A stretch of 1,593 bases of DNA from Escherichia coli (GTDB lineage: Bacteria; Pseudomonadota; Gammaproteobacteria; Enterobacterales; Enterobacteriaceae), in NCBI RefSeq assembly GCF_024223415.1, contig NZ_CP100509.1, one strand, 5' to 3'. The position numbers and the translations under genes are program-made. This document shows, in pieces, positions 1-1,593 of this stretch; position 1 is the first letter of the stretch; every line of letters starts with the position of its first letter. The notes under the pieces were generated by a model, which saw only the letters and a program-made list of their open reading frames with translations, was not told where the DNA came from and did not search any database.

Positions 1-240
1 GTGGCTGATCCTGAATGGTTCCTCGAACTGACCCGCCAGACGCACAAGCGCCGCTTTGTGGCGACCGGCGGCGCACTCAAAGACGTGCTGAAACTCGATC
101 AGGAAACCGACGCCGACATGGTGATCGGGGATGATATTTCCGAGGGCGACGATGACGGTTCACGCATCGCGTTCGAGTGGAAAACCGAGGTCAGAAAGTA
201 CCGTCGCTCACCGACGAAAGATAAAACTGAATCAGGCTAG
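1..240 (+). CDS. rep: C-terminal 79 codons of the same Rep protein (stop TAG 238-240); 5' end lies outside the linear window, at the other end
   Basis: Translation VADPEWFLELTRQTHKRRFVATGGALKDVLKLDQETDADMVIGDDISEGDDDGSRIAFEWKTEVRKYRRS... aligns collinearly with the C-terminal region of pUB110 RepU as recalled (HRKRLISYGGLLKEI...DDDEKADEDGFSIIAMWNWERKNY). Codon phase is continuous with the codon ending at 1593. Confidence 0.85.
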   Translation: MADPEWFLELTRQTHKRRFVATGGALKDVLKLDQETDADMVIGDDISEGDDDGSRIAFEWKTEVRKYRRSPTKDKTESG

Positions 241-272
241 CGGGGTGTCGGGGCGAAGCCCTGACACCCCGC
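240..272. repeat. 15-bp GC-rich inverted repeat with GAA loop, immediately 3' of the rep stop codon; possible terminator stem or origin hairpin
   Basis: 240-254 GCGGGGTGTCGGGGC pairs with 258-272 GCCCTGACACCCCGC (14 of 15 Watson-Crick, one G-T). No T-tract follows on either strand. Confidence 0.5.
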
Positions 273-330
273 CAACGCCTCACGGCACGCGAAAAAATTC
301 CGCGTACCGCTCACCGTTCTTGAACTCGTC

Positions 331-355
331 AAACAGAAAATCGCGGGGCCCCGCG
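331..355 (-). terminator. Perfect 14-bp palindrome CGCGGGGCCCCGCG (342-355) followed on the minus strand by ATTTTCTGTTT; possible intrinsic terminator for minus-strand transcription, or a protein-binding palindrome
   Basis: The palindrome is exact. The T-rich run is immediately adjacent only when read on the minus strand (plus-strand 331-341 AAACAGAAAAT). Confidence 0.3.
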
Positions 356-413
356 CCTCCGGCGTGGGTTCCGATTTTGTGATTGACGACGGCACGGGGA
401 AAACGCTGGGGAT

Positions 414-462
414 GGTGGTTGGTGTCACGGAGTGAGGCCAACCACCTGTAAGACGGTTTTTT
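414..462 (+). repeat. Stem-loop (9-bp stem GGTGGTTGG / CCAACCACC with an inner 4-bp stem) followed 10 nt later by T6
   Basis: 414-422 pairs perfectly with 438-446; inner pairing 425-428 with 432-435; TTTTTT at 457-462. The gap between stem and T-run is too long for a canonical intrinsic terminator. Confidence 0.4.
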
Positions 463-500
463 GTTGTTCACAAAATCGGGGTGAAAGTCTGTGGATGAGA

Positions 501-540
501 TGGGTGTAAGTGGGTGGGGTTGGGAGGTTTTGGGTTACTG
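501..540 (+). repeat. Four tandem decamers each starting with TGGG (10-bp phasing); G-rich plus strand
   Basis: TGGGTGTAAG / TGGGTGGGGT / TGGGAGGTTT / TGGGTTACTG at 501, 511, 521, 531. G-runs at 502-504, 512-514, 516-519, 522-524 and 532-534 fit a G3+N1-7 quadruplex pattern. Confidence 0.5.
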
Positions 541-694
541 AAAATCCAGCTCAAAATTCAAGCAAATCTCGCGCGCGATCCTTGTATTTATACTTAAGGG
601 ATAACTCTAGGATTCAAATTGGCCTCCAGCCCTTGTCCCGCAAGGCTTGAGGGCACATTTGCTCCGAAATGGGTTTAGAAGTATTCTGTCGGAA

Positions 695-789
695 GTGGTC
701 GCGTTAAAAGCGACCCCCGCAACGAGGGCAATCGTTCGGGGGCGTGACCACCTGTAGAAATTCGAATTAGTGACACGACAACACAGGTG
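695..789. other. Nested inverted-repeat cluster upstream of rep; candidate origin (sso and/or dso) secondary structure
   Basis: Hairpin 697-702/710-715 (GGTCGC/GCGACC); hairpin 714-725/732-742 (CCCCCG-c-AACGA / TCGTT-CGGGGG); enclosing pairing 695-703/743-751 (GTGGTCGCG/CGTGACCAC); perfect palindrome AATTCGAATT 759-768; inverted repeat 749-755/783-789 (CACCTGT/ACAGGTG). Confidence 0.4.
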
Positions 790-807
790 ATATGGCAATG
801 ATAACAC
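786..807 (+). other. Candidate double-strand-origin nick region (two TGATA motifs) about 40-55 bp upstream of the rep start
   Basis: GGTGATATGGCAATGATAACAC contains TGATA at 788-792 and 799-803. The nick core of the pC194/pUB110 family is CTTG^ATA and the phiX174 origin contains TTGATATTAATAACAC, both as recalled; there is no exact CTTGATA in the window. Confidence 0.3.
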
Positions 808-830
808 GTCAGATGAGCCATCGCCCACAA

Positions 831-838
831 TCGGGTGG
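831..838 (+). promoter_or_regulatory. Shine-Dalgarno-like element for rep
   Basis: GGGTGGTG lies 5-8 nt upstream of the rep ATG; purine-rich and partly complementary to the anti-SD. Confidence 0.45.
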
Positions 839-843
839 TGCGC

Positions 844-1593
844 ATGAAAAACCCTAAACTCCAGTACCTCACTGATTATTCCCCCTCTGACGCGCCCTGG
901 GACGCACACAGAAGCGTTTCTGACGACGTGGGAGGGATTTACCTGCTTGCGGCCGAATATGAGCGCTACGGGGCTCGTATGGCCTCCTGTGGCGGTTTAC
1001 TGCGTTTCGGGTGGTCTACCCTCAAGGAAACCGGAGAAACGCGTCTGAGGCTGCGTGAGGCGCATTTCTGCCGTGTCCGGCACTGTCCTGTCTGCCAGTG
1101 GAGGCGCTCCCTGATGTGGCAAGCCCGTTTCTACCAGTCCCTGCCGCGTATCGTGGCGGATTACCCTGATGCCCGCTGGATGTTCCTGACCCTGACCGTG
1201 CGCAACTGTGCGATTGGGGAACTGGGCGAGATGCTGAACCGGATGAATGCAGCTTTTCAGCGTATGAAGGTTCGCAAGGAGTTCCTGCCTGTTCAGGGCT
1301 GGATCCGCACAACGGAAGTTACCCGCGGCAGCGACGGCAGCGCGCATCCCCACTTCCACACCCTGATGATGGTGCCGCCCTCAATGCTATCTGGTGACGG
1401 GTACGTAAAACATGCTCGCTGGGTTGAACTCTGGCGGGAGTGCCTGCGGGTCAGTTACAACCCGAATGTTGATGTCCGGGCAGTAAAACCCCGTAAGCCA
1501 AAGGATGGCGAGTCCTTAGCCTGCGCGACCGCTGAACTGGTGCGCGGCGCAGTGGCCGAAACCCTGAAATATTCCACGAAGCCGGCTGACATG
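844..1593 (+). CDS. rep: Rolling-circle replication initiator Rep (HUH endonuclease, pC194/pUB110 Rep type); 5' part, no stop in window, continues in phase into 1..240 if the molecule is circular
   Basis: Open frame (codon starts = 1 mod 3) to the window edge. Translation contains FCRVRHCPVCQWRR (1066-1107), WMFLTLTVRN (1177-1206), the HUH motif HPHFHTLMMV (1345-1374) and the catalytic-Tyr motif ETLKYSTKP (Tyr codon 1570-1572). Order and spacing match pUB110 RepU / pC194 RepA as I recall them. ATG at 844-846 (845-847 in the sequence as I read it) is preceded by the SD-like GGGTGGTG. Other possible starts in the body frame are GTG 928 and ATG 979, both without a good SD. Confidence 0.9.
   Translation, partial: MKNPKLQYLTDYSPSDAPWDAHRSVSDDVGGIYLLAAEYERYGARMASCGGLLRFGWSTLKETGETRLRLREAHFCRVRHCPVCQWRRSLMWQARFYQSLPRIVADYPDARWMFLTLTVRNCAIGELGEMLNRMNAAFQRMKVRKEFLPVQGWIRTTEVTRGSDGSAHPHFHTLMMVPPSMLSGDGYVKHARWVELWRECLRVSYNPNVDVRAVKPRKPKDGESLACATAELVRGAVAETLKYSTKPADM

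Follow-up and report, generated by a model that had tools for sequence, protein, structure and literature searches.

A 1593-bp DNA that is very probably a complete, circularly permuted ColpVC-type plasmid lacking a 390-bp inverted-repeat-bounded module

Gene content and organization of the window

The window, i.e. the whole stretch of 1593 bp that was analysed, has a G+C content of 57% and carries rep, which is split between its two ends, as well as 603 bp of non-coding DNA, in which a conserved structured region lies between a bom-like hairpin and an origin core (Table 1). No credible gene besides rep was found in the window; the statement of the initial annotation that nothing else is encoded therefore stands for proteins. 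On the + strand no stop interrupts the frame over 817-1593, in which an ATG stands at 844, and the ORF listing bears out what had been noted from the letters, namely that 750 nt (250 codons) lie between this ATG and the last base, that position 1 continues in the same phase and that 79 more codons lead to a stop, which is a TAG. Joined head to tail, the two portions give the single Rep of about 329 aa that had been proposed: it is 329 aa long and identical at 329/329 positions to WP_011117490.1, the annotated Rep of the plasmids pB and pGF60-G. Within the rep leader, a Shine-Dalgarno-like stretch (GGGTGGTG) is present at 833-840. A scan of the window found no consensus sigma-70 promoter for rep, and the two terminator-like sites that it returned are at chance level.

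Table 1. Position, strand and supporting evidence of the features in the 1593-bp window.
Feature	Position	Strand	Basis
rep, codons 251-329 and TAG stop (238-240)	1..240	+	pGF60-G 1693->1694; joined protein = WP_011117490.1
Short hairpin GCGGGGTGTCGGGGC-GAA-GCCCTGACACCCCGC	240..272		Inverted repeat, 15-nt arms, 93% complementary
Candidate single-strand (lagging-strand) origin	~273..480	+	Strong fold, conserved stem-loops, compensatory pairs
G-tract run GGGTGTAAGTGGGTGGGGTTGGGAGGTTTTGGG	502..534	+	Regex scan; fits G-quadruplex motif
Candidate double-strand origin core	562..604	+	Nick-like CTTG 581-584, then TAAGGGATAAC; cross-lineage conservation
Lineage-specific region and rep leader	605..843	+	Diverges between Rep lineages while the core is kept
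rep, codons 1-250	844..1593	+	ORF translation, Pfam Rep_1, motifs aligned to pUB110 RepU

The joined Rep contains one Pfam Rep_1 domain (PF01446; E=1e-84, query 68-317, model 2-252 of 253), which runs through the junction at aa 250/251, and it aligns collinearly through the same junction with pUB110 RepU (30% identity over 315 aa, E=2e-49). The initial annotation had compared its size with that of RepU, which has 327 aa in RefSeq and not about 334. A zinc-knuckle-like motif CPVC lies at aa 81-84 and an FLTLTV motif is present; the HUH motif HPHFH (aa 168-172, nt 1345-1359) aligns with HMH of RepU, and the predicted catalytic Tyr243 within ETLKY (nt 1570-1572) aligns with ETAKY. By its domain and motifs, Rep is a single full-length Rep_1 HUH initiator of the pC194/pUB110 group, with a predicted catalytic role. 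Searches with Rep against NCBIfam and PDB sequences gave no matches; the exact protein is encoded on 506 contigs and its cluster has 3246 members.

With the group of pUB110 RepU and pC194 RepA the window shares the full-length Rep_1 domain, the conserved CPxCxWRR, FLTLTV, HUH and ETxKY motifs and, as a candidate origin element, a nick-like CTTG together with TAAGGG(A)TAAC, which precede rep on its own strand. It differs from that group in its 57% G+C, in its lack of a resistance or Mob gene, in having CTTGTAT where the group has the nick heptamer CTTGATA, and in being enterobacterial, as the host range of the matching replicons is enterobacterial and not staphylococcal.

The candidate double-strand origin core matches that of pUB110 in strand and position. 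CTTGTAT (581-587) and TAAGGGATAACT (594-605) resemble the pC194 sequence CTTGATAATAAGGGTAACT, and a nick is predicted on the rep strand after G584, some 260 nt ahead of the ATG of rep. The 43-nt core is conserved in three Rep lineages. It is 95% conserved in many Col(BS512)-type plasmids of 2.09-2.13 kb, in which it is the sole sequence shared with the window at the megablast level; with a Rep of 69% protein identity, Col(BS512) represents a Rep lineage distinct from the ColpVC lineage of the window. The 95%-identity homology to L009, a different plasmid, stops near 596 and is degraded past that point. The region downstream of the predicted nick presumably serves as a Rep recognition sequence or enhancer, and the fold of 605-843 is unexceptional (z=-1.6).

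One of the Col(BS512) plasmids that have the 43-nt core in common with the window (L037, 2089 bp, Shigella sonnei; Rep 69% identical) we take, from its host and size, to be likely of the pKYM type; the cluster names for the Shigella Rep make no mention of RepK. The Shigella sonnei plasmid pKYM (RepK) is the rolling-circle plasmid of a Gram-negative that has been studied experimentally. It replicates by the rolling-circle mode from a complex 173-bp plus origin, composed of a core and an HU-bound enhancer, and its replication uses UvrD (PMC4439123).

Upstream of the origin core, the single-stranded DNA of 236-485 folds strongly on both strands (z=-6.2 on the + strand and -5.6 on the - strand). 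The structured region comprises two conserved stem-loops, at 326-389 and 414-446, whose 38 pairs are 99.3% paired across eight relatives, with compensatory changes at five pairs, a level reached by 0-1 of 500 shuffles. These features make the region from about 273 to 480 a candidate single-strand origin, and it matches no recognised family in Rfam. At a permissive threshold, the sole Rfam result was a spurious miRNA match on the short hairpin. A start-less remnant (265-435) of the annotated 78-aa hypothetical ORF of pB lies inside the structured region. This hypothetical ORF (78 or 143 aa) is the only annotated neighbour of rep in the relatives, and a PHROGs search with three such ORFs gave no matches. 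The G-tract run is kept in L001, L003, L005 and L009 and missing in L004, L037, L038 and L039; as 10% of shuffles also have a G-quadruplex motif, we dropped it as a significant feature.

Relationship to the ColpVC plasmids

The closest matches of the window are circular E. coli and Salmonella plasmids of 1981-1983 bp with 99.4-99.7% identity. Nucleotide identity to Salmonella Enteritidis pB (NC_005002.1, 1983 bp), which PlasmidFinder types as ColpVC, reaches 99.7% across 1593/1593 bases, and the comparison with E. coli pGF60-G (NZ_CP172192.1, circular, 1983 bp, likewise ColpVC) yields only four substitutions and one clean deletion of 390 bp 3′ of the rep stop. The origin core, the structured region and the gene order are the same as in these two plasmids, from which the window differs by the 390 bp missing right after rep and by the resulting truncation of the hypothetical ORF, whose start is lost. 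In the blast comparison, 258-1593 of the window corresponds to 358-1693 of pGF60-G and 1-265 to 1694-1958. Since the pGF60-G record is a closed circle that runs from 1693 into 1694, bases 1593 and 1 of the window adjoin.

The initial annotation had proposed a whole rolling-circle plasmid linearised inside rep, or else one unit of a tandem repeat, and this is supported by the single Rep_1 domain and by the 99.7%-identical circular relatives in which the two ends abut; no unrelated flanking DNA was found, and the joined protein is a single full-length Rep. The check for terminal overlap that it had suggested showed that the ends of the 1593-bp window share none. We conclude that the window is very probably a complete, circularly permuted cryptic rolling-circle plasmid of the ColpVC/pB type, opened within rep, and a minimal derivative that lacks a 390-bp module flanked by inverted repeats. 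Replicon, Rep and family are all known, plentiful in public data and routinely typed as ColpVC, so that the window is essentially ordinary and carries little weight for discovery. ColpVC plasmids are cryptic, about 2 kb in size and present at about 80-115 copies per cell (PMC6118388). The relatives that we examined are 1748-2590 bp long, and the window, at 1593 bp, is abnormally short for the group because the 390-bp module is missing.

The deleted segment and the bom-like hairpins

In all ten ColpVC relatives examined, rep is followed by a variable segment of 200-980 bp flanked by inverted repeats of 25-84 bp that match the ColE1 bom hairpin; a 26-bp bom-like element brackets the segment as inverted copies. 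At this site the window has one hairpin and a segment of 0 bp. The second hairpin copy of the relatives is truly inverted, as its loop reads TTC versus GAA in the first.

The window was joined at 265/266, in an imperfect 8-bp repeat, GCCCTGAC (258-265), and it is over these eight positions that the two blast pieces against pGF60-G overlap. The deletion is bounded by GCCCTGAC and GCCCCGAC, at the outer end of an 84-bp inverted repeat of the parent whose arms are 100% identical. The missing 390 bp take in the 255-bp spacer, the CATCCTGTCCCG nic-like motifs and, apart from the first 26 bp of each, both 84-bp arms. The hairpin at 240-272 is what is left of the paired ColE1-bom-like inverted repeats that the relatives have, and the absence of the segment is a deletion inside the ColpVC family, which is no argument against assigning the window to the ColpVC replicon.

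The hairpin of the window matches ColE1 1521-1499 at 22/23 positions (E=1.5e-6), a bom 5′ hairpin of the GGGTGTCGGGGCGCAGCCCTGACC type, and the corresponding match between the relative L003 and ColE1 bom is 24/24. In ColE1, this hairpin sits 52 nt 5′ of CTGGCTTA (1469-1462), which we take to be the mapped nic. The nic sequence downstream of the hairpin, of the ATCCTG type in the relatives and CTGG/CTTA in ColE1, is missing in the window; of the ColE1 bom/oriT arrangement the window keeps the hairpin only, the inner hairpin and the ATCCTG nic-like motif of the relatives having been deleted. Unlike ColE1-type mobilizable elements, the window also has neither a relaxase nor an accessory Mob gene. 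The CATCCTGTCCCG motif is found in 8/8 relatives typed as mobilizable; the window and 4/4 relatives typed as non-mobilizable lack it. Given that both ColE1-bom-like units with their ATCCTG nic-like motif are deleted, the mini-plasmid should replicate but should not be mobilizable, and we predict from these motifs that the 1593-bp form is a non-mobilizable minimal derivative.

Possible origin of the 1593-bp form

By homology, the 329-aa Rep_1 HUH initiator would nick the + strand at 562-604, probably after the CTTG that ends at 584, and would attach to the nicked strand via Tyr243. The 3′ end would then be extended by a host helicase and Pol III through rep and round the circle, and the displaced + strand would be closed by Rep into a single-stranded circle, on which the structured region at about 273-480, the last to be displaced, may prime complementary-strand synthesis. 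In the 1983-bp parent, the 84-bp perfect inverted repeat has GCCCTGAC and GCCCCGAC at its base, and a hairpin formed in the single-stranded intermediate would juxtapose them; replication slippage between these imperfect 8-bp repeats is the route of deletion that we regard as most likely. Two other routes were ruled out. Relaxase-mediated oriT-oriT recombination does not fit inverted copies, nor endpoints that fall within the outer hairpin and some 50 nt away from the nic-like motif; excision of a transposon or MITE does not fit the lack of a direct target duplication or a repeat that extends to the rep stop codon.

The 1593-bp form is probably a minimal deletion derivative of a known replicon, or possibly an in-vitro deletion artefact. 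In the latter case the molecule in the sample would be the ordinary 1983-bp plasmid and the 1593-bp circle an in-vitro or assembly product, which we hold to be unlikely. Long hairpins are well known for provoking template switching in vitro, and a polymerase could have switched templates at the 84-bp inverted repeat (phi29, PCR or library preparation); otherwise a minor deleted subpopulation could have been preferred by the assembler, the path through the inverted repeat being tangled. Neither PLSDB nor 5,426 complete E. coli genomes contain the exact junction. Its pattern was likewise not found in collections of genome, metagenome and viral contigs, nor was a broader short-hairpin pattern in genome and metagenome contigs, and an exact look-up of the product of the junction-spanning ORF found none on record. 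Being unique to the window among the collections searched, the form is a singleton that could be an in-vitro product. Moreover, short-k graphs collapse a perfect inverted repeat of 84 bp, and public assemblies of the same plasmid are visibly faulty, with tandem (L013) and palindromic (L017) contigs; annotators should bear in mind that contigs of the ColpVC family are often permuted, multimerised or rearranged about the inverted repeat. However, the junction sequence GAAGCCCTGACACCCCGCC does not occur in the 1983-bp parent, so that reads with the junction must exist. As the parent is without the junction k-mers, an exact-overlap or k-mer graph shortcut would be impossible as the source, and we discarded a De Bruijn graph shortcut as the cause of the deletion. 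The rest of the window is also a coherent replicon with rep, origin core and structured region intact, and the natural size range of 200-980 bp among relatives at the exact deletion site indicates that this site is plastic in vivo.

Rolling-circle plasmids form multimers, and the contig could stem from a head-to-tail multimer, of which it would be one unit, or from a larger replicon into which a copy has integrated or cointegrated, since contigs with two or three tandem rep copies exist (L013, L014, L021 and L022) and the same Rep adjoins a relaxase on a 14.7-kb contig (L015). The end-to-start contiguity is expected of a collapsed circle and of a tandem array alike. Of the 406 places matched in E. 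coli, however, 401 are on plasmid records and only five on chromosome records, and close relatives have been deposited as closed monomer circles, which makes this reading very improbable. Very improbable, too, is that the 1593-bp form represents the ancestral backbone with an empty site, from which the 1983-2590-bp plasmids would have arisen by insertion of a module into the hairpin. The segment between the repeats does vary strongly in content and size, and in L009 (1858 bp, Rep 44% identical) the same 243-596 module comes after just one short hairpin. Yet the hairpin of L009 is oppositely oriented and does not adjoin rep, which points to an independent event, and the second hairpin of the relatives is inverted and not a direct target duplication. 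Four substitutions relative to pGF60-G and an identical Rep place the window within a clade whose other members all carry the 390 bp. The paired bom-like hairpins could also be seen as the borders of a dedicated, exchangeable and invertible ColpVC cargo slot whose content differs from lineage to lineage (200-980 bp), which can face either way and whose arms change in concert, with the window as the first case of a slot emptied with precision. We consider this highly doubtful; if true, it would imply hairpin-directed excision or exchange and not random slippage.

Deletion from the 1983-bp plasmid thus remains our preferred reading. A real molecule of this kind would be a minimal replicon of natural origin, for which rep and 603 bp of non-coding DNA are enough and the 390-bp oriT-like module is not needed for maintenance. 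The window would then also provide an example of hairpin-stimulated deletion in a plasmid that replicates via single-stranded DNA.

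Closure of rep across the window ends and identity of the replicon

The window (1593 bp, 56.7% G+C) has no terminal overlap, and joining its end to its start gives a single 329-aa ORF, in agreement with the initial annotation, which had read rep as open from 844 to the last base (250 codons) and continuing in the same phase from base 1 for 79 more codons into one Rep of about 329 aa. The joined protein carries a single Rep_1 domain (PF01446, Pfam E=1e-84) and, since the match covers query residues 68-317 and model positions 2-252 of 253, the domain spans the junction at residues 250/251. 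It is identical at 329/329 residues to WP_011117490.1, annotated as 'protein rep' in pB (NC_005002.1) of Salmonella Enteritidis and in pGF60-G (NZ_CP172192.1) of E. coli. It is also collinear with pUB110 RepU (30% identity over 315 aa, E=2e-49), with the CPxCxWRR, FLTLTV, HUH and ETxKY motifs in register; the HUH motif reads HPHFH (aa 168-172) and Tyr243 lies in ETxKY. Because pGF60-G 358-1693 corresponds to window 258-1593 and pGF60-G 1694-1958 to window 1-265, bases 1593 and 1 are adjacent in this closed circular plasmid. As judged from sequence, the join is real on four independent lines of evidence, and the earlier reading of a whole small rolling-circle plasmid linearised inside rep, or of one unit of a tandem repeat, holds. 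So does the claim that nothing else is encoded: we found no further credible gene, and the hypothetical ORF annotated in relatives (78 or 143 aa), which has no PHROGs family match, is start-less here. Scanning the window for consensus promoters gave no site, and an Rfam search of it gave no real match.

Coordinates of features in the window
Feature	Position	Strand	Remarks
rep, 5' portion	817 to last base open, ATG 844	+	250 codons
rep, 3' portion	frame 1 from base 1, TAG 238-240	+	79 codons
Residual short hairpin, GCGGGGTGTCGGGGC-GAA-GCCCTGACACCCCGC	240-272		left by the deletion
Conserved stem-loops	326-389, 414-446	+	99.3% paired in 8 relatives
G-tract motif	502-534	+	five G-tracts, fits a G-quadruplex; ~50-80 nt upstream of predicted nick
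Origin core	562-604 (43 nt)	+	conserved; nick predicted after G584

The window is an already known and very common enterobacterial rolling-circle replicon, whose sole new feature is the clean loss of an oriT-like module bounded by inverted repeats. Contigs with the exact Rep number 506 and index blocks listing it 1317, and its 90% cluster has 3246 members. By megablast the window matched 536 PLSDB records (Escherichia 303, Klebsiella 102, Salmonella 74, Shigella 31) and 352 of 5426 complete E. coli genomes, in which 401 of the 406 places were plasmid-borne and the other five matches to the whole window lay in chromosome records. One of these five, at 5.206 Mb of NZ_CP093011.1, was seen with a 190-330 probe. 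The top matches were circular plasmids of 1981-1983 bp with 99.4-99.7% identity, and pB is typed ColpVC in PLSDB. ColpVC plasmids are cryptic, about 2 kb long and present at ~80-115 copies per cell (PMC6118388). Rolling-circle-like plasmids of S. Enteritidis are the subject of Gregorova et al. 2004 (as cited in PMC5841774), and pB is presumably the plasmid concerned.

Anatomy and probable origin of the deletion

Save for four substitutions, the window equals pGF60-G minus 390 bp, the absent block lying directly 3' of the rep stop. There the parent carries an 84-bp perfect inverted repeat flanking a 255-bp spacer (990-1073 and 1329-1412, rotated to the rep ATG). In each arm the outer 19 nt, GTCGGGGCGAAGCCCTGAC, form a near-palindrome, so that GCCCCGAC in the inverted right copy doubles as an imperfect direct repeat of GCCCTGAC on the left, and the window junction falls exactly at this repeat (258-265).

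No PLSDB record and no complete E. coli genome matched a 141-nt junction probe over its full length in one piece, and all relatives that covered it fully contained 390-530 additional bases at the junction site. Searches of GTDB representative genomes, JGI metagenomes and IMG/VR for exact junction patterns returned nothing, and exact look-up of the product of the junction-spanning ORF returned no record. The window is the smallest family member seen (1593 bp vs 1748-2590 bp in the relatives examined), and in all ten ColpVC relatives examined, a 26-bp ColE1-bom-like element and its inverted copy enclose a segment of 200-980 bp. Since the window is nested in the pB clade at 99.7% identity, a deletion in its own lineage is the parsimonious reading. 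The plasmid L009 (NZ_CP126184.1, 1858 bp, Rep 44% identical) likewise has a single hairpin, in the opposite orientation and away from rep, which makes it a separate event.

The junction sequence, …GAAGCCCTGACACCCCGCC…, is not found in the parent, which rules out a graph shortcut or exact-overlap circularisation as the source of the deletion: neither could have invented it, and we infer that molecules or reads carrying the junction must have existed. If these arose in vitro, the likely route would be template switching across the inverted repeat. Public assemblies of the ColpVC/pB family are evidently prone to error and include multi-copy contigs of tandem or palindromic structure. We consider it rather probable that the 1593-bp form is a genuine in-vivo variant, in which case slippage at the base of the long hairpin, during the single-stranded stage of the plasmid, would be the likely route.

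The multi-copy contigs (public assemblies L013, L014, L017, L021 and L022) hold two to three tandem plasmid copies, with rep spaced 1983-1984 bp apart, or are palindromic, their two rep genes lying head to head; they probably reflect misassembly or multimer formation driven by the inverted repeat. Contigs of this plasmid family obtained independently in Logan, NCBI and ENA data (L010-L012, L023-L032) begin or end exactly at the cut point of the window (…GCTGACATG / GTGGC…), and Logan circles of 2096-bp relatives measure 2126-2127 bp, i.e. a 30-31-nt overlap, which together indicate that circular unitigs are linearised at a point set by the sequence. On L015 (ENA NODE_279, 14,668 bp), which may represent a cointegrate or may have been misassembled, a Rep identical to that of the window has a NikA-like gene and a relaxase gene (PF03432) ~1.1 kb away.

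Mobilization-like features of the lost module

The inverted repeat of the relatives begins with GGGTGTCGGGGCGCAGCCCTGACC, which in the relative L003 is 24/24 identical to ColE1 1521-1498, and the window hairpin is 22/23 identical to ColE1 bom-region sequence. In ColE1 the repeat-matching stretch sits 52 nt 5' of CTGGCTTA (1469-1462), which we take to be the mapped nic. In the relatives a lineage-specific inner hairpin comes after GGGTGTCGGGGCGCAGCCCTGACC, and after this hairpin CATCCTGTCCCG, which resembles the nic consensus YATCCTG. The CATCCTGTCCCG motif is present in 8/8 relatives typed as 'mobilizable' without relaxase (PLSDB/MOB-suite) and absent from the four typed as 'non-mobilizable' and from the window, a pattern from which the window should have lost its mobilizability.

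The 80-84-bp arms are 100% identical within each plasmid (rotated 990-1412 in relatives L001/L002, 993-1491 in L003, 993-2018 in L007) and differ by many substitutions between these lineages, so that the arms must evolve in concert; the inner hairpin reads GGGAATGTC...GACATTCCC in L001 vs GTAATTGT...ACAATTAC in L003. In L001 a spacer core of ~170-190 bp is inverted relative to L003 and L007, and its orientation agrees with that in L004, L005, L006 and L008, which suggests that it flips between the inverted repeats. This conserved core contains GTTTGTATAAGTGCGCAC after a short inverted repeat (e.g. L003 rotated ~1310-1340, L005 ~1145-1170); GTTTGTATAAGTGCGCAC resembles the RSF1010/R1162 oriT nick region GGTAAGTGCGCCCT and is possibly a second oriT mimic, of the MOBQ type. 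The variable segment of L005/L006 (2094-2097-bp relatives, rotated ~1240-1400) holds a run of TGTGGGT-like repeats, and the corresponding region of contig L026 (382-972, minus strand) a 196-aa ORF without PHROGs match.

Predicted replication origins and proposed cycle

The origin core, TCTCGCGCGYGATCCTTGTATTTATACT, is kept across three Rep lineages, with divergence beginning just 3' of it. It resembles CTTGATAATAAGGGTAACT of pC194 and lies ~260 nt upstream of rep on the rep strand, a position likewise taken by the pUB110 origin. In many Col(BS512)-type plasmids from E. coli and Shigella sonnei (2.09-2.13 kb), similarity to the window is confined to 562-604 (95%), and their Rep (in L037, a 2089-bp S. 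sonnei plasmid) is 69% identical to that of the window. We assume that pKYM is of the Col(BS512) type, and L037-type plasmids are then probably of the pKYM type. pKYM has a complex origin and shows HU stimulation and UvrD dependence (PMC4439123). Window 243-596 and L009 1673-2027 share a non-coding module at 95% identity, despite the 44% identity of their Reps, and this homology stops near 596, beside the predicted nick site, a mosaic typical of recombination at rolling-circle origins.

Within the 603 bp of non-coding sequence, 236-485 folds as ssDNA far better than shuffles (z=-6.2 for the plus and -5.6 for the minus strand). Five pairs of its conserved stem-loops show compensatory changes, a covariation drawn from only ~3 divergent lineages; 0-1 of 500 shuffles reached the observed values, slid controls were only 30-47% paired, and G-T pairs favour the plus, displaced strand. 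The region is a candidate single-strand origin. By homology with the pC194/pUB110 group, Rep would nick the core after G584 and attach via Tyr243, leading-strand synthesis running past rep, the hairpin and the structured region would displace the plus strand, Rep would terminate and release a single-stranded circle, and the structured region would prime the complementary strand. The G-tract motif, not significant alone given such a motif in 10% of shuffles, is kept in several relatives and replaced in five others (L004, L008, L037, L038 and L039).
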